Shown here piece by piece: positions 1,336 to 20,455 of a stretch of DNA of 64,000 bases (position 1 is the first letter of the stretch; every line of letters starts with the position of its first letter). Source of the DNA: Narcine bancroftii (Eukaryota); the NCBI RefSeq assembly GCF_036971445.1, contig NC_091474.1, forward strand, positions 35,650,001 through 35,714,000, given 5' to 3'. Below the pieces are notes generated by a model, which saw only the letters and a program-made list of their open reading frames with translations, ran no database searches and was not told the origin of the DNA. The position numbers and the translations under genes were made by a program.

Positions 1336-2895
1336 GTGTAGAGAATCATGAACTTTTCCCCCTTGTTAATAATTGTCCACCACCACTCACAGCTGGGTAT
1401 GTTAGGACTTCAGAGCTTTGATCAGACCTGATGGTTGAGGGATGCCTTAATCCAATCTGGAGCCTGTGTGTGGTAGTCCTTCATTGTTGTTTCACCAAGC
1501 TGGCATCTCATTTTCTGTTATGCCTGGTGCTGCTCCTGGCATGCTTGTCCATGTACCTCATTAGACCAATGTTGATGAGGTCTTGCACCATGTTATTAAG
1601 TTGCATGTGGGTCCACTCAACAGACTTTTGATTCACCCCACAGCACATTACGCTATTGGGTGGATTAAGCGGTTTACAGATTTAAAAGGGTAGAAATTCA
1701 TCTGTAGTCACTATGAATGATATAGAGTTGACTGCCTCTTGTACTCCCCTCTCAAAGTTAAATTCCATTAACTTCAATACTGTATATATCCAAGTATCAA
1801 GAGGGATTCTATAGCTGGGTGCCAATAGTATTTTGTAACTCCGCAGCAATACAAGAGGAGACATTATTACTACTGTAATACTAACTTGACTCTATTGACC
1901 TGTCCCATCAAATAACAAATGCTGTCAGTTTGTATCTCAAAGCAGTCGACTGTGTGAGATTTTCTGGAATTAAGGAAAAGCCACAGACCCTTTCTCACTG
2001 ACCAGAAAATGCAACTGGAATTAATTCAGTGTAATTGTATTCCTGATTATGAATCTATTCAAAAATGAGGACTCATCTTTATTTAAGCTGCTGCCCAAAT
2101 GAATCAGGCATAAATCACAGCCTACTTTTATTTCTGAGATCACATATTTCTATAAAAGATTCTCTCCTGAATACACTTAGGAATAATATATTCCCTGTGA
2201 TTAAAAAAAATGTATCCAATACAAACTAAAATGCGAAATTCTTACCAGGATCCAAAGCACAATCAGCTGGTTCAGAAGCAATCTGCTATTCCTTTACAAC
2301 TCAGCCAGATAGACCACATGTAGTACAGGAGCTCCTTATCTCATGATGAGCATTTAACTATCTTCAGATCCAACAGGAATTTCTGATTTTATAAAACATC
2401 CATGCCTGAATATTAGTGGTGTGGTATTTACAAAATAGCTGAGTAGCACGACCAGGGCATTCAAGAATCAGACAAACCACAGTAGATAAGGCAGAGCAAA
2501 TACTTCAGTCAATTGATTAGGGGAGAAATGCAATTAACAGATGTGATAAACCTGACTGTTAAGACAGCACTTCAAGAAAATGGAAACTTCTGTCAGAAAA
2601 GCTTAACATACTTAGAATTCAAACAATACATGAAGAACAAGAAATGACTCTAAAATCACTATTCTGATACCACATTTAAAAGAATGTACAATCTTCTCAC
2701 TGTCTACAAACCCCTACCTATATATTTATGCAGGTACAGATATCTCTTATTTGCTCTTTGTTTCCAGGTTTCATAAATTACTGATTATGGATTTAGTGAC
2801 ATTGTAAAATTCAACTCCAGCAACTCCATAGTTAGCAAGTCTTTCTTGTTGCTCATTACAGGAAACTTCACTAAGGAGCTACTATTGCAGCTGAA

Positions 2896-3041
2896 CTTCT
2901 CTGTGGATTGTCACCTTGTCGTGGTGGAGAAGCTTGTGCGGTCCTGAGATCGCGAGAGTGATGCCACCTGGAGCTATGCTCCTGGTAGGACCACCCATGG
3001 CGGTAAGGGCGAGGGTGAGGCCCCTGACAAAGAACAATCCA
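2896..3041 (+). ncRNA. Candidate HDV-like ribozyme fold
   Basis: P1 CTTCTCT(2896-2902)/GGAGAAG(2926-2932); P2 TGGATTGT-C(2904-2912)/G-a-ACAATCCA(3032-3041); P3 ACC/GGT around L3 TTGTCGT; single P1.1 pair G2918-C2933; J4/2 C3028-AAA. Confidence 0.5.
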
Positions 3042-3340
3042 AGACCTCAACAGTGGAGCAGGCAACCAAGTTACTCTGAACTCAACGGATGTGAAGGCAG
3101 ACGAAGGCTATAACAAATCCATCAGCTCCATTTGTTGCGGTTTTCATACCATTGGAACTAATTGGTTGCTTTGTGAAGTATCATGTGCTTCTTGTGGTGT
3201 AACAGCAAGTGCACATTAAACAAATACATGGACAGGCGTCTTCGCTCGGTGGGCTACTTTCCAAGACTGGACTCATAAGCCACTTGAGAGCCCATAGGAA
3301 TGAAGACCATCATCCTCAACCTCAAAGGGTAGCCACAACT
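2896..3340 (+). mobile_element. Non-autonomous bipartite RTE-derived retroelement (RTE 5' UTR joined to RTE 3' end)
   Basis: Starts with an RTE-type leader (GTCACCTTGTCGTGGTGGAG). From 3260 reads SKTGLISHLRAHR, the RTE ORF C-terminus (compare SRIGLVSHKRAC of the long RTE), then an RTE-like 3' hairpin (ATCCTCAACCTCAAAGGGT). No EN/RT sequence in between. Confidence 0.7.
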
Positions 3341-3789
3341 AGGACATACCCATGATTCTGGACACTCACACACAAAGTGAGAAGTATATAGATTTCAAAC
3401 TTCCAGAAAAATAATTAAGGTTAAATGGATGAATATGGAGAAAACTTTTGAGTTATCCTAATAACAGGTGTTCAAGTGTTCCCACTCTGTATACTTTAAT
3501 TGTCATGCAATTTAAACTGGCACTAAAATAAGAGAATGTCTAATTTAAATGATTCCTTATCTTTGGAAGTTGACAAATTAGACAAGAGACTGCTGGAAAA
3601 CCAAAGTGAAATTCGAAATTATTCTAAGCACACAACCAGTTATCAAAAATAAAAGGGAAGGTTTTCGATTAAAAAGTAAGGAGCACAGAGCCCCTCTGAA
3701 GGGTTGTAAACATTAATCTAACCTTTTCCTTCAGAAACCAAACGATCGACTGTGTATTTCAGAAATAATCACCCTGATTATTAGGAAGA

Positions 3790-3935
3790 ACTGTGACACA
3801 GCAGCACCAAAACCCAGAATGAAGTCTCCCTTGGAGCCACTGTGGCCAGGCACGTCTGTCCCTGACTGGCCTCGTCATCTACCAGCGAGCCTGCAGCCCC
3901 CTTCCTAAATCTTTGTTCACAAAGCCAAGCCATGA
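3790..3935 (+). mobile_element. Degenerate RTE LINE 3' fragment
   Basis: Ends GAGCCTGCAGC..TAAATCTTTGTTCACAAAGCCAAGCCA, matching the 3' end of the RTE at 7197-7270. Confidence 0.6.
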
Positions 3936-4429
3936 TCTGTCGATATTTTTCTTAAAACTATAATCAGATAATTATGGATGTCTTTAAAAAATGGTCTTTT
4001 AAGGTTTATATCTCAATTAAATACAGGGTTTGATTTACCTCACAATATAATTACTTACCATTGTGTTCCACTGTCAAATCATCAAATCCATCATCATATT
4101 TATGGCACCTTGATATATGAACAACTGGGTGCCTTCCCTAGAAAACCAGCAATAATTATTTATTTACACTGGAAGAACTTTTCCCTTCTTGATTTCCAGT
4201 AATTGAAATGTTTTACATCTGTTACAGTAATGTGTGGGTTTCTTATCTCTCACTCTCTATCATCTTGCATCTCTTCCTCATCTGCATCTCATCTACAGAA
4301 ATCAACTACACACCTACATTTAATATGCCTTTACCACCCACCCTCTCCAAGGGGCAACACATCAATTGTGTCATTTACACTCCCTGGTTTCTGTTGTGGT
4401 TAATGTTAAAGGCTGTTGTAGGTAACAAC

Positions 4430-5250
4430 AGAAAATAGTCAGAACGTAGAGATGGGTGGAAAAAGTGTCAGATAGAGTTCAATCCAGATAAATGTCAGCT
4501 GATGCATTTTGGTAGGTCAAACTTGAAGGCAGAGTACATGGTTAATGGTAGGATATTTAACAAAGCGGAAGAACAGAGGGGTCTTATGGTCTAAATTCAT
4601 AGATCTCTTAAGGTCACCACGTAGGTTGATAGGACAGTTAAAAAGGTCGATGGTATGCTGGGCTTCACTAATTGAGGGATTGAGTTTAGGAGTCATGAGG
4701 AAATGTTGAAGCTCTATAAATCTCTGGTGAGGCCACACTTAGAATATTGTGTTTAGTTCTTGGTCACCTCATTTCAGCAAAGATGTGGAAGCGATGGACA
4801 GGGTGCAGAGAAGATTTATCAGGATGCTGCCTGGATTGGAAAATATGTCTTTCTGAAGCCAAGTTAGCAGAGCTAAGGGTTTTTTCTTTAGAGTGAAGAA
4901 GGATGAGAGAAGACTTGATATAGGTCTACAAAATTCTGAGAGGCACAATAGGGTGGACAGTCAGCACCTTTTTCTCAGGGCAAGAATAGGAGGCACCAGA
5001 AGACATCTGTAGAAAGTAAAGGGAGGAAAGTTTAGGGGAGATATAAGGTACACAGAGAGTTGTGGGTGCTTGGAATGCATTGCTTAGGTGGTGGAGGTTG
5101 GAACAATAGGGCCATTTAAGAGACTCGTAGACAATCACATGGATGAATGAAAAATGAGGTGGGATGGGTTAGTTTTTTTGGTACATATAGTTTGGCACAA
5201 CATTGTGAGCCGAAGAGTCTATACTGTTCTACAATGTTGTATGTTCTATT
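4430..5250 (+). mobile_element. CR1-clade LINE 3' fragment
   Basis: Decayed ORF2 motifs FNPDKC.LMHFGRSN, LYKSLVRPHLEYCV.FW, VQRRF.RMLPGL; TGTTCTA-type tail. Confidence 0.85.
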
Positions 5251-7196
5251 GCAGACACTGTAGTTGTCCTTTCTACCTCTACAACCTCTCCTTTGCAATT
5301 TAAAACACAACCACAGGAGAGAACAGAGAAACGGTGTCAAAAAATCATCGCACATCCAAAACAACTGGCGGAAGCAGGGGCCAAATGTTGTGTGCACAAG
5401 TAACCAAGAAATCTAATCTGAAGTAAACTACATCCTAAATAATGCAATGCATTGCACAGACAAAAACTTACTGGAGGAACTCAGCAGGTGAGACAGCATC
5501 TGTGGGTAGAAATGGTCACTCTGCAGCTTTTGTGTTTTTCTAATGGAAGGCATTTACTGACATCAAATAATATCTATTCACTAGCTAACTTCCTGCTATA
5601 CTCTCACTTTAAATGCAGCACTGTGACCCAAAATGTCAACAGTTCCTTTGCCCTACATCAATGCTGCTCGACTCCCTGCTTGACTTCTGCCACCAATTTG
5701 GTTTTTTTTTGCTCCAGGTTCCAGCATTTGCAGTCTCTGTGTTTCCAGTGGATGTTCACTGCCACCATTCTAGGCCAATAAAGAATCATTTCAGACACTA
5801 AAGTGATTAACATATTGAAATTCAGATCCTGCTTTCCTCAAGGGGCTTTTACCCCAGATATGGAAGTCGATGGATTAGAATTAGGTTTTAAAAATGCCAT
5901 CAATTCTAATGCAACTAACCTCCTAATTGGTTGATCTGCCTTCAAGCCTGTAATACATTCATGGTAGATTCATCCCAGTCTTTATCTCCACTTCTATGCC
6001 ATCTCCCCATAGCCCTCATTTCCCTGTCTTTGCTCTTTAAATACTCCATATGATCAGGTCTCCACAACCCTTGGAATTTATGCTATCCAAAAAAAAAAGG
6101 TGAGTCATTCATCTTAGATTTGTTCTGGAAAGTTGGGTTCCTCCATTGACTCTTCACTAAACCCTGCTCTACTGACTGACAGAAATGGACCGTCAACATG
6201 GCCTGGAGCCTTCAGTATTTATCACCATGAAAGATAGCCCTGTGAACACTTGACATCAGCTCATGTAAGCGACATCACATCTTGCCAAGAACATTCCCTA
6301 AAACTCATTTATAAAAATATGTAGGGATTTTAAGGGAAAAGAATAAGATATCTATGTAAATTATTCACTGTAACCTATGTGTGATCACAGCTAAAAGTAA
6401 GGTGAGATGGATTGCCACAAGGCAGATACAATCAGTGTCTGTTGGTTAAATAGGCACCATACAAGGAAGACATTTAAATTGCTTTCACCAATGTGCAATT
6501 AACCAGACTTTTTTTGCCCCAGCGCTTTGACCTTGAGAATGTCTTAAAATATTGATAAAAGTAGAGAAGAAGAGTGCATTCCATTATATATGTTGATTCA
6601 GCAAGGCTAAATCTGATTGTGAAGAACAACTCCTTATTAAACAAAAGCAGTTAAAGACTATTAACTACTGGGTAAGGGACACGGTCCAATGTAATGAATC
6701 CTTAGAAACATACTTCAATGGAAAAAGGATTGTGAAATGATGTTCAAATGTTCTGGAAAGCTGGCAGTCTGTATAAATATGCAACTTATGAGTTCTCATG
6801 CTTTGCAATGTAACAATAAAGTATAGTAAAATTTGTAGCCATATTTACGTTCATTTATCAAGTAATCTTAGGTCCACTTTTCACAATCTCATTATCATTT
6901 TCAATATTTTCAGAAACTATTTGTGCTGTTTATTTCCTCAGCACACATCACAGGGACTAGTTTCAGGAAAACGAAATCTCAGCAAAGACTATCCAGCCCT
7001 CATTAAAGCCTGTATACCGCATTTCTTAAAATTTAAGGTGGATGCTGTTGGAATCTAGGGGTTAAAACATTATGAAAGAAATGATTAATTAATAAGTTTA
7101 TATTTACTGCATGGTTCAGGGGAAAAGAGGAATGTGATTAAGTGGCAATCACAGCATGGAGCAAAGTTGGCTGAGCAAAATGGTCTGCTCCCAAAT

Positions 7197-10100
7197 TTTT
7201 TTTTTCTTTGGCTTGGCTTCGCGGACGAAGATTTATGGAGGGGGTAAAAAGTCCACGTCAGCTGCAGGCTCGTTTGTGGCTGACAAGTCCGATGCGGGAC
7301 AGGCAGACACGATTGCAGCGGTTGCAAGGGAAAATTGGTTGGTTGGGGTTGGGTGTTGGGTTTTTCCTCCTTTGCCTTTTGTCAGTGAGGTGGGCTCTGC
7401 GGTCTTCTTCAAAGGAGGCTGCTGCCCGCCAAACTGTGAGGCGCCAAGATGCACGGTTTGAGGCGTTATCAGCCCACTGGCGGTGGTCAATGTGGCAGGC
7501 ACCAAGAGATTTCTTTAGGCAGTCCTTGTACCTTTTCTTTGGTGCACCTCTGTCACGGTGGCCAGTGGAGAGCTCGCCATATAATACGATCTTGGGAAGG
7601 CGATGGTCCTCCATTCTGGAGACGTGACTCATCCAGCGCAGCTGGATCTTCAGCAGCGTGGACTCGATGCTGTCGACCTCTGCCATCTCGAGTACCTCGA
7701 CGTTAGGGGTGTAAGCGCTCCAATGGATGTTGAGGATGGAGCGGAGACAACGCTGGTGGAAGCATTCTAGGAGCCGTAGGTGGTGCCGGTAGAGGACCCA
7801 TGATTCGGAGCCGAACAGGAGTGTGGGTATGACAACGGCTCTGTATACGCTTATCTTTGTGAGATTTTTCAGTTGGTTGTTTTTCCAGACTCTTTTGTGT
7901 AGTCTTCCAAAGGCGCTATTTGCCTTGGCGAGTCTGTTGTCTATCTCATTGTCGATCCTTGCATCTGATGAAATGGTGCAGCCGAGATAGGTAAACTGGT
8001 TGACCGTTTTGAGTTTTGTGTGCCCGATGGAGATGTGGGGGGGCTGGTAGTCATGGTGGGGAGCTGGCTGATGGAGGACCTCAGTTTTCTTCAGGCTGAC
8101 TTCCAGGCCAAACATTTTGGCAGTTTCCGCAAAGCAGGACGTCAAGCGCTGAAGAGCTGGCTCTGAATGGGCAACTAAAGCGGCATCATCTGCAAAGAGT
8201 AGTTCACGGACAAGTTTCTCTTGTGTCTTGGTGTGAGCTTGCAGGCGCCTCAGATTGAAGAGACTGCCATCCGTGCGGTACCGGATGTAAACAGCGTCTT
8301 CATTGTTGGGGTCTTTCATGGCTTGGTTCAGCATCATGCTGAAGAAGATTGAAAAGAGGGTTGGTGCGAGAACATAGCCTTGCTTCACGCCATTGTTAAT
8401 GGAGAAGGGTTCAGAGAGCTCATTGCTGTATCTGACCCGACCTTGTTGGTTTTCGTGCAGTTGGATAATCATGTTGAGGAACTTCGGGGGACATCCGATG
8501 CGCTCTAGTATTTGCCAAAGCCCTTTCCTGCTCACGGTGTCGAAGGCTTTGGTGAGGTCAACAAAGGTGATGTAGAGTCCTTTGTTTTGTTCTCTGCACT
8601 TTTCTTGGAGCTGTCTCAGGGCAAAGACCATGTCAGTGGTTCCTCTGTTTGCGCGAAAGCCGCACTGTGATTCTGGGAGAATATTCTCGGCGACACTAGG
8701 TATTATTCTATTTAGTAGAATCCTAGCGAAGATTTTGCCTGCAATGGAGAGCAACGTGATTCCCCTGTAGTTTGAGCAGTCTGATTTCTCGCCTTTGTTT
8801 TTGTACAGGGTGATGATGGTGGCATCACGAAGATCCTGAGGCAGTTTACCTTGGTCCCAACAAAGCTTGAAAAACTCATGCAGTTTGGCATGCAGAGTTT
8901 TGCCGCCAGCCTTCCAGACTTCTGGGGGGATTCCATCCATACCTGCTGCTTTGCCACTTTTCAGTTGTTCGATTGCCTTATATGTCTCATCCAGGGTGGG
9001 AACCTCATCCAGCTCTAGCCTTAGGGGCTGTTGAGGGAGCTGGAGCAGGGCGGAATCTTGGACTGAGCGGTTGGCACTGAAAAGAGATTGGAAGTGTTCT
9101 GACCATCGGTTGAGGATGGAGATCTTGTCGCTGAGGAGGACTTTGCCGTCTGAGCTGCGCAGCGGGCTTTGGACTTGGGGTGAGGGGCCGTACACAGCCT
9201 TTAGAGCCTCGTAGAAACCCCTGAAGTCGCCAATGTCCGCGCTGAGCTGTGTTCGTTTGGCGAGGCTAGTCCACCACTCATTTATCTCCCGGAGTTTGCG
9301 CTGAAGATGGCTGCATGCGCGACGGAAGGCTTGTTTTTTCTCTGGACAGGACGGCTTTGTAAGGTGAGCCTGGTGGGCAGCTCGCTTCTTTGCCAGCAGC
9401 TCCTGGATTTCCTGGCTGTTTTCCTCAAACCAGTCCTTGTTTTTCCTGGAGGAGAAGCCCAGTACCTCTTCAGTGGATTGCAGTATGGTAGTCTTCAACT
9501 GATCCCAGAGGGTTTCAGGGGACGGGTCCGTGAGGCGGGTTGCAACGTCGAGCTTTGCTTTGAGGTTTGCCTGGAAGTTTCCTCTCGCTTCGTCTGACTG
9601 CAGTTTTCCAACATTGAACCTCTTTCTGGGGGCTTTATTGTTCCTGGGCTTTGGCTTGAAGTGAAGGTTGAGCTTGCAGCGAACCAGCCGGTGGTCAGTG
9701 TGGCATTCCGCGCTAGGCATGACCCTGGTGTGGAGCACATCTCGTTTGTCTCTTTCTCGCACCAGGACGTAGTCCAGGAGGTGCCAGTGTTTGGATCGGG
9801 GATGCATCCAGGTAGTTTTCAGGCTGTCCCTCTGCTGAAAAAGGGTGTTTGTAATGACAAGCCGCTGTTCTGCGCAGAGCTCCAACAGGAGGCGCCCATT
9901 GTCGTTGCACTTGCCGACGCCATGCTTGCCCAGGATTCCTGGCCAGGTTTCTGAGTCTTTGCCGACACGAGCGTTGAAGTCGCCCAGGATGACAACCTTG
10001 TCGGCTGTAGGGGTACGTTGGATGAGGTTGCGCAGGTCGGTGTAGAACTTGTTCTTTTCTGCTGGTTCCGCCTGGAGGGTTGGAGCATAGACACTGATGA

Positions 10101-10496
10101 GGGTGATGTGACGCTTGTTTTAAAGTGGGAGTCGCATGGACATGATTCGGTCCGAGAGGCCTGTCGGAAGGTTTTCGAGTTTGGAGGCAATGAAGCTCTT
10201 GACCATGAAGCCTACACCAGATAGGCGTCGTTCATCCGAAGGCTTGCCAGACCAGTAGAGTGTGTAGCCCGCGCCGCGTTCTTGGAGGCTGCCTACATCT
10301 GCCAGGCGGACTTCACTGAGAGCGGCTATGTCGATGTCAAGTCTGAGGAGTTCATGTGCAATGAGGGCAGACCGACGTTCAGGTCGGTGGCTGTCAGCCT
10401 TGTCTAGCATGGTTCTGATGTTCCAGCATGCTAGCTTGAGTTTGTGAGCATCTTTTGAGGGGGAGGACGTGGAGGGGGAGGACGTTGAGGGGGAGG
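7197..10496 (-). mobile_element. Young RTE-clade LINE, 5'-truncated just upstream of the endonuclease
   Basis: Single EN-RT ORF, short 3' UTR ending GCCAAGCCAAAG plus A-tail; interrupts LTR #1; GC- and CpG-rich relative to flanks. Confidence 0.95.
7258..10494 (-). pseudogene. RTE ORF (APE endonuclease + reverse transcriptase + C-terminal Cys/His motif) with one premature stop
   Basis: LACWNIRT, ALSEVR, VILGDFNARVG, LDYVLV, HTDHRLV (EN); QCGFR, FVDLTKAFDTV, GVKQG, LFADD, YLG (RT); CNRCNRVCLSRIGLVSH. ORFs 10120-10410 and 7258-9885 share a frame, separated by TAA at 10120-10122. Confidence 0.92.
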
Positions 10497-10554
10497 AAAT
10501 GCATAAAACGATTTAGGAGGAATGCTCAAACTGAAGGAGGTTGGGGGTAGCACA

Positions 10555-11363
10555 TGTCGGACTCTGGCTTTAACTTACTCTTAATTTAGTCTATGTGTAG
10601 TCTGAGTCCAGCGCGTTCTTTGAATGAAGTGATAGGAGAAGGTATTCGGTTCAACAGTCAATTTATTACACAGCACAAGAATAAAACTTAACAGAGCTCT
10701 GGGTCACTCATTAGTTCATAGGTCACCTGCACAGTGAGCTACTCCCCAAGACTGACCCCTATTGTCCAGTTGGTTCAGTTTATATAGATCAACCTTATAC
10801 AGAACAAAAGTTGGCTTCCTTTGCTAGATTTCATTATCATACAGAACAAAAGTTGTCTTCCTTTGCTAGATCTTTTTGCATAAGGGTTATCACAAGTCAT
10901 CTCCTGTTTTGCAGATATCTGGGGTGTAGCACTCCCATCTTAATCCTCCAGGCCAGACTATCTTGTTGTGTTGATCAGAAATTAATTCATCCCCAGATAT
11001 TTCTAATCACCATTCTGTCCCTGTCTGGCCAATTTCTGCTGTTCTCTTTAACACCTCCTCCTGCCTTAATCTTCCTCCTAGACTGGTTTTCCATTCCCTT
11101 TGTTTCTTACAGGCCATTCTTTGTTCTGATCTGGCCTGTGTCTCCTGTGCTACTCACCACCTCCTTTAGTTTGAGCATTCCTCCTAAATCGTTTTATGCA
11201 TTTCCTCTCCCTGTATTTTGGAGAGACAATTTTTGTTCAGCCAACTTTGCTCCATGCTGTGATTGCCACTTAATCACATTCCTTTTTCCCTGAACCATGC
11301 AGTAAATATACACTTATTAATTAATCATTTATTTCATACTGTTTTAACCCCTAAATTCCAACA
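10555..11363 (-). mobile_element. Solo LTR #2 (809 bp), same family as LTR #1, inserted in inverted orientation
   Basis: Plus-strand termini TGTCGGA...TCCAACA; TSD CACA (10551-10554, 11364-11367); its own sequence shows the uninterrupted target GTAG-CACA-GGAGAC. Confidence 0.92.
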
Positions 11364-12477
11364 CACAGGAGACACAGGCCAGACCAGAACAAAGAATGGC
11401 CTGCAAGAAACAAAGGGAATGGAAAACCAGTCTAGGAGGAAGATTAAGGCAGGAGGAGGTGTTAAAGAGAACAGCAGAAATTGGCCAGACAGGGACAGAA
11501 TGGTGATTAGAAATATCTGGGGATGAATTAATTTCTGATCCAATCAACAGGATAGTCTGGCTTGGAGGATTAAGATGGGAGTGCTACACCCCAGATATCT
11601 GCAAAACAGGAGATGACTTGTGATAACCCTTATGCAAAAAGATCTAGCAAAGGAAGACAACTTTTGTTCTGTATGATAATGAAATCTAGCAAAGGAAGCC
11701 AACTTTTGTTCTGTATAAGGTTGATCTATATAAACTGAGCCAACTGGACAATAGGGGTCAGTCTTGGGGAATAGCTCACTGTGCAGGTGACCTATGAACT
11801 AACGACTGACCCAGAGCTCTGTTAAGTTTTATTCTTGTGCTGTGTAATAAATTGACTGTTGAACCAAATACCTTCTCCTATCACTTCATTCAAAGAACAC
11901 GCTGGACTCAGACTACACATAGACTAAATTAAGAGTAAGGTAAAGCCAGTAAGGTAAAGCCAGAGTCCGACAATGCTCACAAGTAACTGGCCTCTGGTGG
12001 CTGAAAATTGTGGCCACGGATGAATCATGGTCGCTCCCTGTAACTGAGCATTGACCATAATTATCTTCTAGCTGTGGTCATTGATAATCAGCAAATTGAT
12101 GAGTCTAGATAATTTTTGGTTCAGAACTGTGTCATGGTTCTGTTTAGGAGTCCTTTGGGTGACGTGTGTGGAATTAATGACCCTTCACCCATTAGGAAGG
12201 CTGATCTCCTGGAAAACCTGCAATGCTGTCCTCATCCTAAAAAAAGAGAGCTACTTGTCCCTCCTTGGGAAGAGACCCCACCCCCTACCCCACCACCACC
12301 AAATGCAATGATGAGCTCTAACTTTATACGTACTATCATCTGCAAGAAAAGAGCCAAAGTTGTAAAAGTTCCTTGGCTGTACCAGTCGATAAGGCTGCAG
12401 TGTGTGTGGTGGATCCCCAGTGGAATTCCTTGCTGAAACAAGTCCTCTTATACATTAATCCACCGCTCAGCTGATAT

Positions 12478-12738: not shown

Positions 12739-14777
12739 TTACAGTGGGAAGGATTTTAAAAAAACATTGTGGATACACATCCAGATTAATGGCTACTTTT
12801 GCCTCTTTGCCCATGTTTCTAGCATATCATCTTCCTCTATAGATTCTTCTTTTAATTTCCCCTGTCACTTTGGAGGCATGAAGGTATGACCACTAAATTC
12901 CCCATGCCAGACTCATACTAAACTCAGCTTTAAACCACTTGCTCACTAATCTGACACTTCAGCTCTGCATAAAAATCAAAAATGAAACAAATGTCATCAA
13001 CTAATTCTTCTCCCTTGGTTCACCTTTCCCATTCATTCCCCATCCGCCCAGCCATCCCTGAAGTTGGAAAGTTATTGGAGTCGATCATCAAGAACAAAGT
13101 CATGAAATACCTTGAGGTGCATGACATGTTAGGTCCAAGCCAGCATGGTTTCATGAAGGGAAGATCCTGCCTGACCAACCTATTGGAATTTTTTGAGGAA
13201 ATCTCAAGTAGGATGGACAAGGGAGAGGCTGTGGATGTTGTGTATTTGGATTTTCAAAAGCCCTTCAATAAGGTGCCACTTAAGGGCTGCTTAATAAGAT
13301 GAGAACCCACTGAATTACAAGAAAAATATTAGATTGGCTGATAGGCAGAAAGCAAAGGGTGGGAATAAAGGGATCCTGTTCTGGTTGGTTGCCAGTTACT
13401 AGTGGTGTTCCGCAGGGGTCGGTGTTGGGGCTGCTTCTTTTTACAACATATATTGATGATTTAGATTATGGATTGATTGATTTTGTGGCTAGGTTTGGAG
13501 AGAAGTGGTGGAGAAGAAAGTGTTGAAGAAATTGAAACGTTGCAGAGAGACTTCAACAGTTTAGGAGAGAGGGCAAAGAAACAACAGATGAGATACAATG
13601 TTGAGAAATGTACGGTTGTACATTTTGGCAGAAAAAATAAACAGACAGATTATTATTTGGATGGGGTGAAAACTCAAAATTCGTAAGTGCAAAGGGACTT
13701 GTGGGTCCTCGTGCAGGATAACCCAAAACACACATGTCAAACTCAGGCCCGCGGGCCAAATTTGGTCCGTGATATAATTATATTTGGCCCGCAAGATCAT
13801 ATCAAATATGTATTAGAGCTGGCCCGCTGGCCGCCGCACCAGTATAACGCATGCACAGCTAATCCTACAAATCCCAGAATGCTTTGCAAATGCATTGGCA
13901 CCGGCCCGTCAGCCCGCTAATCGCCCCCACCTCCTCTCTTTACTTTCATTAGCATCTGCGACCTGTCGCCCAACTCACGTGTAATAAACCCCTTACGAAA
14001 AATGGCCAAACGAAAGACAGAAAACAGGACCTTTCAAGACAGGTGGGAGGCAGACTATATGTTCATCATTTTAAAAGACCAACCTGTTTCTCATTGAAGC
14101 AAGTTGTTATTCTTTTGACTTGTTGGCTTGTGAAAAAAAAACATTTAAAAGGAGCTTAAAGGCTATAGAGAAATATTATTTATTGAATATTTTATTTCTG
14201 GAGGAGTCACGTGATGGAGTAGTGGCTGGTCGGGGAACTCCAGCCCTCTCCGGAAAAGTTTAAAAAAAATACAGAAAACACAAAGGCACAAACATAAAAA
14301 TTAAAATAAAGTGAAAGTAAAGGTGGGAAGAAAATGGCAGCGAAGAAAGAAAAGTCGAAAGCAACAGGAAAAAGAGAAGAAGAAAGGACGTCGGAAGAAG
14401 AAGGTGAAGGCCTTACCTGTCCGAGGAGGCCCGCTGCGGAGAGAGAAGCCCGCTCCCTAAGGTCAGTCGAAGCCCCGAGCTCGGGACTACAAAAATGGTT
14501 CGCGGAGCCAAGCAAAAGTGCACGATGCGCATGACAAAAAAAAAACACTGACGGGAGGGGGGACCAGCTGAGGAGTCGATCTCCACAGCTGAGAATGACA
14601 GCTACAACACCACAACAGGAAGAGAACATAGAAAACAACGAGAACAAGAAAGAGAGTAAAAAGAAAACAAGGAAACAACAGATGACCAACCCAGAGGAAG
14701 AAGAAGAGGAAGAATATAGAGAAATGGAAGAAGAAGGGAAAGGCAAGACAATGGATATATATATTTTTAAATAATAT

Positions 14778-15548
14778 ATGGAATCAGTAAAAGAATGGCA
14801 ATCACAAGAAATTAGTGAAATAAAAAGAAGAATTAAACGTACAGAAGAAAAAATGAATAGATTAGAGATGGTCATGTCAGATATAGGAAAAAGAGTGGAC
14901 AAGGTGGAAGAACAAGAAACAGCCGTAGAAATGGAAGTAGAGGACTTAAAAAAGAAATTAGAAGAATCTAATAAAAAAGTTAAAGAGACACAAGAGCTGT
15001 TAGCTCAGAAGATAGATATAATGGAAAATTATAATAGAAGAAATAATATAAAGATAGTGGGCCTTAAGGAAGATGAAGAAGGCAAGAATATGAGAGAATT
15101 TATAAAAGATTGGATCCCCAGGGTCCTAGGAAGACCAGAATTACAGGAAGAAATGGAAATAGAAAGGGCACATAGAACATTAGCCCCGAAGCCACAGCCA
15201 CAACAAAAACCAAGATCCATATTAGTAAAATTCCCAAGATATACAACAAGAGAAAATATATTGGAGAAAGCAATGAAGAAAATAAGAGAAGACAAAAAGC
15301 CACTGGAATACAAAGGTCAAAAATTTTTTTTCTATCCAGACATAAGTTTTGAACTCCTGAAGAAGAGAAAGGAATTTAATACAGCAAAAGCAATCCTATG
15401 GAAAAAAGGATATAAATTTATGCTAAAGTACCCAGCGGTACTTAAAATAGTTATTCCAGGGCAGCAAAACAGACTATTCTCGGATCCGGAGGAAGCACAA
15501 AAATTTGTAGAACAACTACAAAACAGACAGAGAGATGAAGACATGTAA
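14778..15548 (+). CDS. L1 ORF1p (coiled coil + RRM/CTD); N-terminus probably cut off by an upstream stop
   Basis: MENYNRRNNIKIVGLKE, EIERAHR, PRSILVKF, FFYPDIS, YPAVLKI motifs. Confidence 0.8.
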   Translation: MESVKEWQSQEISEIKRRIKRTEEKMNRLEMVMSDIGKRVDKVEEQETAVEMEVEDLKKKLEESNKKVKETQELLAQKIDIMENYNRRNNIKIVGLKEDEEGKNMREFIKDWIPRVLGRPELQEEMEIERAHRTLAPKPQPQQKPRSILVKFPRYTTRENILEKAMKKIREDKKPLEYKGQKFFFYPDISFELLKKRKEFNTAKAILWKKGYKFMLKYPAVLKIVIPGQQNRLFSDPEEAQKFVEQLQNRQRDEDM

Positions 15549-15557
15549 CGAGAGTAA

Positions 15558-15729
15558 NNNNNNNNNNNNNNNNNNNNNNNNNNNNNNNNNNNNNNNNNNN
15601 NNNNNNNNNNNNNNNNNNNNNNNNNNNNNNNNNNNNNNNNNNNNNNNNNNNNNNNNNNNNNNNNNNNNNNNNNNNNNNNNNNNNNNNNNNNNNNNNNNNN
15701 NNNNNNNNNNNNNNNNNNNNNNNNNNNNN
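15558..15729. other. N run (gap or masked sequence) in the L1 inter-ORF region
   Basis: Run of N. Confidence 0.99.
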
Positions 15730-16144
15730 TATTTAAAGGAAAATGTATAGAGTATAGATAAGAATTACTAAGGGAAAGAAAGGGAAGAGAGGAAGTAAGG
15801 AGGGAATTAAGAGAGTGACCTTTGTTATATATGAAGATTAAAATCTTTTCTGTGGGGGGCTGGATGGGGAGGAGTTACGGTCACTGCGAAATCAGTTGAT
15901 GCTTGCGAGTGAATTCGCAAATCCAAATGGAGAGGGGAGATGTGGTTGCCCGACAAGGGATAAAGGGCAACTCAGGAAGGGGAGGGGATAGTGGGGTTAA
16001 AGAAATTTTAGATAGGAGAATAAGGGAAATGTCTCATGTTTTAGAAATGTTGTCTTATAAAGTGTTCAAAACAAGAAAACAGAAATGGATAAGAAGGAAA
16101 GGTGATGATGAGGAAACGGAAAGGAAAGATAAACAAAGTATGAA

Positions 16145-18472
16145 ATGGCTACGTTGAACTATATGACTTTAAATATTAACGGAATACATAACCAAATCAA
16201 AAGGAAGAAATTGCTAAATTTACTGAAAAAAGAAAAAATTGATATAGCATTCGTGCAAGAAACACATTTAACTGAAATGGAGCACAAGAAATTAAAGAGA
16301 GATTGGGTAGGACATGTAACAGCAGCGTCATATAATTCAAAAGCTAGAGGAGTAGCTATATTAATCAGTAAAAATGTACCAATTAAAATAAAAGAGGAAA
16401 TAATAGATCCAGCAGGGAGATATGTAATGATAAAATGTCAGATATATTCGGAGTTTTGGAATTTACTCAATGTATATTCACCTAACAAAGAAGATCAAAA
16501 ATTTATGCAAGATATTTTTTTGAAGATAGCAGACACGTAAGGGAACATACTAATAGGAGGGTATTTCAACCTTAATTTGGATTCAAATATGGACAAAACT
16601 GGGAAAAAAATTAACAGAAAGAACAAAGTAACCAACTTTATAATTAAATCGATGGAAGAAATGCAACTTTTGGATATATGTTAGCTATAGAACCACTAGC
16701 AGAATTGATAAGAACAGAAAATAATATAAAAGGGATAAAAATAAAAGACAAGGAATATAAAATCAGTTTATTTGCAGATGACGTTATAGTATACTTAACA
16801 GAACCAGAAATATCAATAAAAGAATTACATAAGAAATTGAAAGAATATGGAAAAGTGTCGGGATACAAGATTAACGGAAATAAAAGTGAAGCAATGCCAA
16901 TGAATAATGTGGATTTCTCAAAATTTAAGAAAGAATCACCATTCAGATGGCAAATGCAAGCAATATGATACCTAGGTATACAAATAAATAAAAACTTCGG
17001 CCATCTATATAAACTCAATTATTATCCACTAATGAAAAAATTACAGGACGACGTAGAGCATTGGAAAGACTTACCACTAACACTTATAGGAAGGATAAAC
17101 TGTATTAAAATGAACATTTTCCCAAGGATACAATACCTATTTCAGGCATTGCCAATACACTTGACGGAGAAATTCTTCAAGGAGTAAAAGAAAATAATAA
17201 GGAAATTTTTATGGAAAGGGGGGAAACCGAGGATAGCACTAGATAAATTAACAGAATGGTATAAACAAGGAGGCTTACAACTGCCAAACTTTAAAAATTA
17301 TTATAGAGCCTCACAATTAAGATATCTATCAGATTTTTATCAAACAAGGGAAAAGCCAGATTGGACTAGATTAGAACTAGATAAAATAGGGGAGAAGATA
17401 CCTGAACATATATTATATAAATGGGATGAAAAATTGGTACAACGTAGGAATTCTCCAGTATTACATCATCTGCTCAATATTTGTAAGAAGATTCATGTAG
17501 AAAGGAATAAAACAAATTACCAATTACCAAAACTAATACTGACGCAAAATCAGCTAATCCCTTTTACAATAGATAACCTTTCCTTTAGAGAATGGGAGAA
17601 AAAAGGGATCAAAAGAATAGAAAATTGCTTTTCAGGAAATAAATTATTATCCTTTGAACAAATGAAGGATAAATATAATATAACTCACGATACAGTGTTG
17701 GCATACTACCAACTGAAATCCTACTTGAAGGACAAATTGGGAAGCAGTCTAAGGTTACCAGAGGGAAGTAATTTTGAATATGTGATTACAGACACAATGA
17801 TAATCAAAACATTTATAACAAATATGTATATTAAACTGCAAGAAAAGGAGAATGAGGAAACAAATGGTAAAACTAAACAAAAATAGGAACAAGATTTAAA
17901 CATAAAGATAAAGAAGGAAACATGGGAGAAGTTATGCTCTGGAACTATGAGAAATACAATAAACACGAGGTTATGTATGATACTGGATACACAGGCTATA
18001 CATTACACCTCAAAAGTTAAATAAATGGGACCCAACAGTATCTGAGAGATGTTTTCGCTGTAAAAAGGAAATGGGAACAACAATTCATGCAATCTGGGCA
18101 TGTGAGAAAGTGAAAAAATTTTGGGAAGATCTAAACCAGATATTAAATAAAATCACAAAAAGCAATATACCAAAAAACCCAGAGATCTTCCTCCTAAATA
18201 ACATAAAAAACAAAGAATTTGGACTTGATTTGGATGGTGCACAAAAAAGATTTGTTAGGATAGCCCTAGCTGTAGCAAAAAAATATATTATGTCAGCCTG
18301 GAAATTAGAAGATAACTTGAGAATACAACAATGGTATATAGAAATGAATAAATGTATTCCATTAGAAAAAATAACATATAATTTAAGAAATAATATTACA
18401 ATATTTGAACAAATTTTGGAGCCATACGTGAAACACAATAGAGAAAACCTACCGGGGACATCTACCACCTAA
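16145..18472 (+). pseudogene. L1 ORF2 pseudogene (EN, partial RT, C-terminal Cys motif)
   Basis: MTLNINGI, AFVQETHL, NVYSPN (EN) jumps at ~16680 to LAIEPLA..SLFADDVIVYL (RT); several stops and a frameshift; CFRC..HAIWAC. Confidence 0.9.
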
Positions 18473-20455
18473 AATGACAGAAGGAAAAGGAAATGAAAAG
18501 AATTGACTCAGTGGAATTTCTTATTTATTTTTATTGAGTGACAACATTGTTTGACGGGTTTAATGTATCTTAGATTCTGAACTTTAAATGAATGGGAGGG
18601 GAGGTAGGGAGGGTGGGATGGGAAGAGGGGGGGGGAAGAAAACGACACTGTATATATTTGAAAAGAAAAATTTATGTATCTTGATCAATGTGGTTTATAG
18701 TGTGAAAAATAAAAATAAAAAAAAAAGAATATTTTATTTCTCATTTGTTAATGCTTCTTCTGGAAAGAGTTTAACCAAAGCTATTATTAAACATTTATTC
18801 TAATAAGAAAAAGTTTAACATTACATATGTTGAAAGAAGAGAAAACATGCATATGTTGTTAAAAATTTTCAATAAATATTTAGTTTGGCCCACGACTTAG
18901 TCCAAGTTTTTAATTTTGGCCCTCTGTGAATTTGAGTTTGACACCCCTGACCTAAAACTTACTACCAGGTTGGATCGGCAGTAACAAAAGCAAATGCTAT
19001 GTTTGCAATCATTTCAAGAGGAATAGTGTACAAGAGTAAAGAGGTCTTGATGTGGCTCTGTGGGGCACTGGTGAGACCACATTTGGAGAAATGTGTGCAG
19101 TTTTAGGCCCCTTATCTTAGAATGGATGTAATGATGCTGGAGAGAGTACAGAGAAGATTTACGAGGATGATTCCTGGAATGCGAGGGCAAACACATGAGG
19201 GACGTTTATTGGCTCTTGGACTGCATTCATTGGTGTATAGAAGAATGAGAGGGGATCTCAAAGAAACATTTCAAATGCTAAAAGGATTGGACAGAGTAGA
19301 TGCGAATAAGATGTTTCGCTTGGTGGGTGAATCCAGGACAAGAGGGCACAGTCTTAGAATTAGAAGGTACCCACTTAAAATAGAGATGACAAGAAATTTC
19401 TTTAGCCAGAGGGTCGTGGATTTGTGGAATTTGTTGCCACTTACAGCTGTGGAAGACTGATCATTGGGGGAGTTTAAGGAGGAGATTGATAGGTATCTAA
19501 TTAGTTAGGGTAGCAAGGGATACGGGGGAAAGGCTAGAAATTGGAACTAGATTATGTGGTAGAGCAGACTCGATGGACTGAATGGCCTACATCTGTTCCT
19601 TTATCTTGTGATCTCACCCTCCACCATCTGCCCATTATTCTTCCATAGCTGGTTATACCTATGATCTACCTTCATCTCCCCCCCCCCCCCAACCCCCCAC
19701 CACCACCCCAATCCATCTGCTTAGTTTGCTGTCCCTTATCAGTTTCCACCTATCACTCAGCAGCCTCTGCCTCAACCCTCCCTCTCACTTCTATATACTG
19801 GCTATAACTCCTCCACATTCCTAATCCTGATGCAGGTTCATAACCCTAAATGTTGACAACCCCTTTGCCGTAAGTCCTCCATTTCCCAATGAGTTCTTGC
19901 AGCAATTTGGTTTTTTTTGCTCCAGATTCCACCATCTGCTGTTCTTTGTTCTTTCCTTTCCACGTCTAACCCTCATTCTAATCAATCACTAACACGCTGG
20001 AAAATTATCCCCATAAACAGCATAATGTAGGAGCTGGTGAGAAGGGAATTCTTCCTCTTGCAGAATACTAAGTTCCCTGTATATGATTGATAAATTACTT
20101 TAATTGAATTTTCATGGTCCAATTTGATGACATTAGCATCAGATCAATATTGTATGAGGATTGATGACATGATCTGTTTGATCTTTCTACTTCCTGCATA
20201 CATATTATTTTAATTAATTTGCCAAAGAGCACAAATTGTGTCATTATGCATTAATGACTGGCACACAAGACTGGAAACATTTCAGCACCTGTATCGCAGG
20301 CACAACCATTACTACTCAGCCCAACTTCACATTGTAGTAATCTTACTTGTATCTCGAGGAGTGCTAGACTCATTATATATTGTATAATGTATATATGCAC
20401 CCAAATTCTTACTTGGAGCAGGCAAAAGGGTATTTTGTAAGCAAAAATTTTATAT

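Follow-up and report, generated by a model that had tools for sequence, protein, structure and literature searches.

An HDV-like fold of inverted core polarity, probably a ribozyme that cleaves itself, at the 5' end of a non-autonomous RTE-derived element of Narcine bancroftii

A stretch of 64,000 nt of Narcine bancroftii DNA was analysed (the window; all positions are those of the window). The first 146 nt of a dispersed, high-copy, ORF-less element of about 445 nt, derived from an RTE retrotransposon, are predicted to fold like the ribozyme of the hepatitis delta virus (HDV). The motif is quite probably an HDV-like nested double pseudoknot with an inverted core of the L1Tc type (C1-G37 and G22-C38), and the RNA of the family likely self-cleaves just 5' of C2896. 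Its pairings covary in relatives, two pairs of its core flip together and the family starts at C1.

Results

The elements of a nested double pseudoknot (P1, P2, P3, P1.1 and P4) are all present in order, as judged by pairing and covariation (Table 1). P1 is completely paired (7/7; six Watson-Crick pairs and one U-G) and its first pair is C-G. P3 is ACC/GGU (3/3 paired) and L3 reads UUGUCGU, in which U2916, C2920 and G2921 are the equivalents of U20, C24 and G25; these three bases were set by the search patterns, so that their conservation in relatives is no independent test. Two canonical features are absent. The first base is C2896 paired with G2932 instead of a G1 paired with U/C37, and P1.1 consists of G2918-C2933 plus a U.U instead of C(L3)-G(J1/4). 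A direct check of the letters confirmed P1, P3, L3, the G2918-C2933 pair and C3028 before AAA as they had been assigned in a sequence-only reading of this DNA. On the other hand, the P2 of that reading (2904-2912/3032-3041 with a bulged A) was placed in the wrong register: relatives give a bulge-free helix of 8 bp, leave C2912 as a linker and fix the position of J4/2.

Table 1. Coordinates of the motif and of its host element in the window
Feature	Position	Strand	Remark
P1, 5' strand	2896..2902	+	C2896 is the first nucleotide of the family; predicted cleavage site directly 5'
P2, 5' strand	2904..2911	+	Register from relatives
P3 (2913-2915/2923-2925) and L3 (2916-2922)	2913..2925	+	Equivalents of U20, G22 (2918), C24 and G25
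P1, 3' strand, ending with G37 (2932), then C38 (2933) and U39 (2934)	2926..2934	+	
P1.1			G2918-C2933; U2934 opposite U2917 (U.U)
P4 domain	2935..3027	+	Long, multi-helix; common to RTE-type families; six private substitutions in the window copy
J4/2, C-N-A-A-G-A	3028..3033	+	C3028 at the catalytic-C position; next base variable
P2, 3' strand	3034..3041	+	
Non-autonomous bipartite RTE-derived element (5' UTR part and 3' end remnant)	2896..3339	+	From depth of family contigs; 3' end approximate
RTE C-terminal coding remnant (S-K-T-G-L-I-S-H-L-R-A) and short 3' UTR	3203..3339	+	Weak match

A generic HDV-like descriptor, composed after the motif was known (P1, P2, P3, U..CG in L3, any Watson-Crick 22-38 pair, C-N-A and a free +1), matched the window once, at the motif, and 1 of 150 dinucleotide shuffles. 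No HDV-family match was obtained from Rfam at E ≤ 10 within positions 1500-5500. The pseudoknot-free minimum free energy (MFE) fold of the motif has a z of –1.83 and pairs L3 with J4/2 instead. In the window copy its energy is –58.1 kcal/mol, versus –45.6 for P2, P3 and P4 together and –7.4 for P1 alone. The L3:J4/2 pairing was rejected as the conserved structure because the phage forms described below are unable to make it. By eye, the base of P4 (2941-2952 with 3013-3024) shows a bulge of 3 nt and, after it, GA opposite GA or AG, and looks like a kink-turn, which is retained even in two mid-length metagenome forms (L026 and L059).

Copies of the family were read as contigs from four public runs, aligned to 2780-3440 at 80% likeness, and 281 to 2,815 contig records per run align to the element. 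At 2895-2917 the summed contig depth, about 9 in the flank, climbs to thousands, and it comes back down within 3332-3354. As the earlier reading had anticipated, the 5' ends of the family pile up at 2896. Loose contig ends at 2896/2895 number 154/52 in run X1 and 112/49 in run X5, and 20 lie at 2896 in run X6. The share at 2895 would fit a chance match to an A, the flanks being AT-rich. Fewer ends (32 in X1) are piled at 2904. Run X7, which is RNA by guess, covers the family and has no pile at 2896 among the ends listed; contigs cannot show RNA ends, and it was not counted as evidence. Against an RTE-type ORF found elsewhere in the 64 kb, the 3' part of the element gives a weak C-terminal match (8/13 identical, E 4e-4). 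Behind 3336, family copies of X5 carry (GAC)n tails, which the window copy lacks. The element and its relatives are labelled RTE by their domain layout and by Repbase names.

The window copy is probably old. A search for its target-site duplication gave just 6-8-mers, most of them mismatched, and no second copy of the element or of its core was found within the 64-kb window. It has A at –1 and differs from the X1 majority at 25 places (about 6%) among the positions listed. None of these differences falls in 2896-2938 or 3022-3041, and six are in P4. Two private changes (2939 and 2952) favour a wrong hairpin. The suspicion that the copy is decayed therefore applies to P4, but not to the core, which equals the family majority; the private P4 changes may misfold this copy and, even supposing an active family, it may cleave slowly or not at all. 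Contigs of X5, which comes from a different organism (B), cover both flanks (2849-2894 and 3307-3440), so both organisms, A and B, probably share the insertion, which would then be old.

Other LINE sequences lie in the window. At 7204-10512 on the minus strand there is a near full-length RTE-type LINE of another family, with RT and endonuclease. It is interrupted by a single in-frame stop near 10120, lacks its 5' end and there adjoins a 586-bp inverted repeat pair (10564-11149 / 11364-11949, 97.6%); the core search of the window found no ribozyme core at this LINE. Fragments of a LINE with two ORFs, presumably L1-like, occupy 14200-18500 on the plus strand.

Relatives of the motif were sought in metagenome contigs with the pattern P3-L3-P1(3')-CUU, and 101 of an estimated 380 loci were recovered. 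Together with one viral locus and the window, 103 core matches were parsed. C-N-A-A plus a pairing P2 was present in 56 of the 103, which formed 21 clusters. Eighteen families were kept, as L013 and L049 are internally deleted and L022 has a misplaced J4/2. Across these families, whose rows were picked partly for pairing, P2 shows two-sided change at 8/8 pairs and its covariation score was reached by 0/500 shuffles. Among unselected matches with enough flank, a P2 score of at least 12 was found in 51/86, versus 10% of 6,890 swaps. P1 is perfectly Watson-Crick in 7/21 representatives, versus 1.3% of swaps; P1 swaps between families still average 5.1/7 paired, owing to the purine- and pyrimidine-rich strands. 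In 14 long forms P4 is homologous, and 18/23 of its predicted pairs show two-sided change. When 24 LINE and phage cores, also picked partly for pairing, are aligned together, 99.2% of the cells in P1, P3 and P1.1 are paired, although the search patterns fixed most of P3/L3 and, for the LINE set, C-N-A-A. P1.1 in this alignment is G-C in 19 cores, C-G in 4 and A-U in 1. The covariation proposed for P1, P2 and the G2918-C2933 pair was thus found, the last giving way to A-U and C-G in relatives. The second base of J4/2 is variable (T11 A4 G3 C3), as expected of a position that is extruded in HDV.

The motif heads LINEs in these contigs. Conservation in the largest metagenome family (15 flanks) rises from 0.33-0.60 over –12..–1 to 1.00 at +1; two smaller families, which reach 0.56 and 0.71 at +1, have a less sharp boundary. 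APE endonuclease or RT domains were detected in 3/3 downstream metagenome LINE ORFs of one set and in 6/12 of another. The relatives of one such ORF (L074) are mostly single APE+RT proteins of about 1000 aa, and the named ones come from fish, molluscs, a lancelet, a coral and a turtle. A single APE+RT protein of this length is the RTE layout. One further locus scan gave, by reading, four distinct full folds among 115 loci, and the remainder was chance. Two metagenome loci (L046 and L060) have ORFs 650-870 nt past the motif with no endonuclease or RT match. These ORFs look like gag-type ORF1, and the motif may also head two-ORF LINE clades. A minimal C1-type motif without P4 was seen on a metagenome contig (L080:1480-1545, +), where the downstream ORF has no Pfam match.

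Named families carry the same module, as compared by eye in the supplement of Kojima 2018 (PMC5786205). The start L3-P1-CUUG is shared by RTE-3_Crp, RTE-1_Crp and RTE-14_Lch, and window 2916-3044 resembles RTE-3_Crp 24-155 at roughly 80-85%. BovB_Plat has the A22-U38 version. RTE1-N1_LA and RTE-1_OAf have AGT/ACT as P3, a compensatory change that lay outside the reach of our search patterns and could not have been found by them. The P4/J4-2 part also occurs in RTE-7_PM, RTE-4_PM, RTE-60_LMi, RTE-3_MD and BovB families of that supplement; as far as the source was covered, RTE-3_MD shares part of the module and RTE-1_MD was not seen to. The 5' end of our element is thus homologous to the 5' UTRs of RTE LINEs, and like the bipartite non-autonomous RTE elements of Kojima 2018 (PMC5786205) it joins 5' and 3' RTE parts and has no ORF. 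The description of the motif as a vertebrate RTE-lineage variant holds for the RTE link but not for the restriction to vertebrates, since locust-named RTE families, further metagenome LINEs and phages have it too. In the same supplement, the long P4 domain is common to R4-1B_AC and Dong-2_Lch, the latter with G at the place of C38; this is possibly the same module with canonical polarity in another clade.

The two departures from the canonical core are coupled. Four scans in which positions 1, 22, 37, 38 and 39 were left free gave 116 matches; 56 passed the P1/P2 filter, 37 of them distinct. Pair 22-38 is Watson-Crick in 37/37 distinct full folds (G-C 25, C-G 11, A-U 1). C1-G37 always comes with purine22-pyrimidine38 (26/26), and all folds without C1 have C22-G38 (11/11), with G1 or A1 at +1 in 10 and U1 in one. 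By lineage, 15 are C1/R22, 9 are non-C1/C22 and none is mixed (Fisher p 7.6e-7, with lineages that are partly dependent, several sharing a contig). The 60 matches that failed the filter were uncounted; many are more C1-type copies with one P1 mismatch, and L502, L510, L512 and L533 among them read G1-C/U22-A38, which fits the coupling. Because 22-38 pairs throughout and co-varies with pair 1-37, the core that had been called non-standard is, by its sequence, a coupled, polarity-inverted subtype of the HDV-like fold, broader in hosts than the earlier reading had it. We infer that the coupling reflects negative design, in which a mixed core would slip by one base between P1 and P1.1 (G1 with C38, or C1 with G38).

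Viral contigs contain minimal forms of about 55-80 nt; 66/132 cores pass the P1 and P2 filters, 39 of them distinct. The C1-type forms of about 57 nt sit mostly between co-directional phage genes, and one contig often has several. In 19/26 lineages, versus 40/104 control positions, the end of a hairpin lies no more than 4 nt from C1. The G1-type phage motifs show the same tendency near +1 (6/9 versus 14/36 controls). G at –1 is found in 0/26 phage C1 lineages against a background of 24% G, unlike the LINE insertions, where 6/16 have it. A role as tRNA-processing theta ribozymes was ruled out for the phage motifs, since 0/39 distinct motifs lie within 10 nt of an ARAGORN tRNA. Rfam matched 1 of 14 phage loci, to RF02682, at 27.2 bits versus a threshold of 44. 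A prokaryote-genome scan, whose pattern allowed short P4 only, returned 116 loci and 46 parsed cores with 0 full folds, and one phage motif, compared by blastn with annotated phages, had chance matches only. Three viral contigs have multiple matches (L252/L253/L326-L328; L226/L257/L268/L336/L337; L231/L280). Most of these parse as divergent C1-type motifs between short co-directional genes, most with an upstream hairpin and a downstream start codon. Their arrangement suggests a device that likely cuts polycistronic RNA into units.

Discussion

The closest known system is L1TcRz/Pr77 of the trypanosomatid L1Tc, NARTc, ingi-clade and SIDER elements. It shares with the window motif C at +1 with G37, a one-pair P1.1, a pyrimidine at 38 and an RCC/GGY P3 (PMC3185411, PMC4035085), and in both cases P1 begins at +1 of a non-LTR element and of a short non-autonomous derivative. 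The L3 of one phage motif (L222/L548) is identical to that of T. brucei copies. There are differences as well. P1.1 is G22-C38 with U21.U39 in the window motif and A22-U38 with C.C in L1TcRz (A22 being taken from T. brucei copies), and the branched P4 of about 93 nt corresponds to a short hairpin in L1TcRz. The setting here is the RTE clade in an animal, plus phages, rather than the ingi clade, and cleavage by our motif is a prediction. In L1TcRz the cut lies 5' of C1, and a G at –1 inhibits it (PMC3185411). The C at +1, which the sequence-only reading had regarded as unusual, thus departs from G1 indeed but is not unprecedented. In a Leishmania copy, a C1-A39 mismatch accompanies very low activity (PMC4035085).

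The fold, its place at the 5' end of an element and a proposed release from co-transcripts are shared with the HDV-like ribozymes of RTE, R2, R4/Dong and Baggins elements (Ruminski 2011, as cited in PMC6765202, PMC5786205 and PMC3774820; also Eickbush 2013). Published HDV-like descriptors fix G1 and C-G in P1.1 (PMC6326823, PMC8495972). The window motif has neither, and was not filed as canonical HDV-like for this reason. The theta and minimal phage ribozymes (PMC10879173) resemble our phage motifs in their fold of about 55-60 nt, RCC/GGY P3, CUAA J4/2 and intergenic position, but the rows seen in their supplement have G1 and CC/GG P1.1. In the searched supplement files of that paper, four C1-type L3 strings had 0 occurrences, versus 675 for one canonical string. 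A literature search whose scope excluded Ruminski 2011, Weinberg 2015 and the supplements of PMC13635239, any of which may bear on novelty, did not find a C1-type HDV-like class or this L3 string as a ribozyme. Twister variants have been reported at other RTE 5' ends (PMC7761336; PMC8501958). The window motif shares one feature with three further ribozymes. The polarity of the CPEB3 ribozyme is G1 and C22-G. Its P1.1, like those of the C. briggsae and Ackermannviridae ribozymes and of the window motif, has one Watson-Crick and one pyrimidine-pyrimidine pair (PMC13635239), and the two RNAs crystallised in that work have a U:A pair.

The proposed mechanism is as follows. The family RNA would be transcribed inside a longer host transcript and then fold, and cleavage 5' of C1 would free the element. 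C3028 would serve as general acid together with a Mg2+ ion, as the J4/2 cytosine does in HDV ribozymes (PMC13635239). The cleavage would leave a 5'-OH end, which the fold may then protect, and full-length reverse transcription would set the 5' end of the new copy at C1. With a G at –1, P1 would extend into C38, and cleavage would be expected to weaken. Fast cleavage can go together with a U.U second pair in P1.1 (PMC13635239). As counterpoints, a review calls G1 invariant and the G-U wobble essential (PMC8495972), a design descriptor fixes the G1-Y and C-G P1.1 pairs (PMC6326823), and among trypanosome Pr77 copies there were some that folded well but did not cleave (PMC4035085).

The same counterpoint on the wobble, which is absent here, would suit a fold that is real but no longer cleaves, that shields the 5' end or aids cap-independent translation or protein binding, with +1 set otherwise. 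The large conserved P4 points the same way, being dispensable for catalysis as the minimal forms without P4 indicate, and the HDV fold in R2 templates has been described as a cap-like protection (PMC13708176). Yet L1TcRz cleaves despite its C1, which moves the odds from a non-cleaving fold towards self-cleavage; besides, the minimal phage forms retain the catalytic core alone, lie between genes and avoid G at –1, and the J4/2 pattern is the same as the catalytic one. We regard loss of cleavage as unlikely.

An internal promoter that starts at the pyrimidine-rich +1 would also produce a sharp 5' end, which would then be the start site, and the fold would be secondary or share the job as in Pr77, which is both promoter and ribozyme (PMC3185411). 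Copies do begin with C and a pyrimidine run, but this run covaries with its P1 partner, and phages, in which a promoter of this kind would play no part, have the same core, so that this account appears quite improbable. As for a chance resemblance in a purine/pyrimidine-rich repeat, it could be argued from the missing Rfam match, the low z value and the well-paired P1 swaps. It is largely refuted by the single match among the 150 shuffles and by the covariation of P1, P2, P1.1 and P4, and can hardly be maintained. Self-cleavage 5' of C1 is thus the preferred reading.

A wider proposal, on which we are evenly divided, is that HDV-like ribozymes have two coupled polarities. The inverted one would be the standard active 5'-processing device of much of the RTE/BovB LINE clade, mammals included, and would also cut polycistronic phage transcripts, having gone unrecognised since searches fix G1. 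The inverted polarity has so far been tested only in trypanosomes (PMC3185411, PMC4035085). If true, the proposal would offer a concrete, testable account of the way in which RTE/BovB-type LINEs define their 5' end precisely, and would suggest a reason why bipartite non-autonomous elements arise from them so readily. The motif is missed by Rfam and would be excluded by descriptors in which G1 is fixed; such searches would undercount the HDV-like family in animals and phages. The minimal forms offer natural 57-nt RNAs for asking whether HDV catalysis needs the G1 wobble. One RTE element serves as a tool for gene insertion (PMC13708176), and the design of templates would be affected by a 5' ribozyme fold in related UTRs.

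Apart from the motif itself, two elements may hold a clue to the origin of the mammalian CPEB3 ribozyme. A close likeness to this ribozyme was noticed at the 5' end of Vingi-2_Gav and in the body of SINE2-1_AMi (PMC5786205 supplement).
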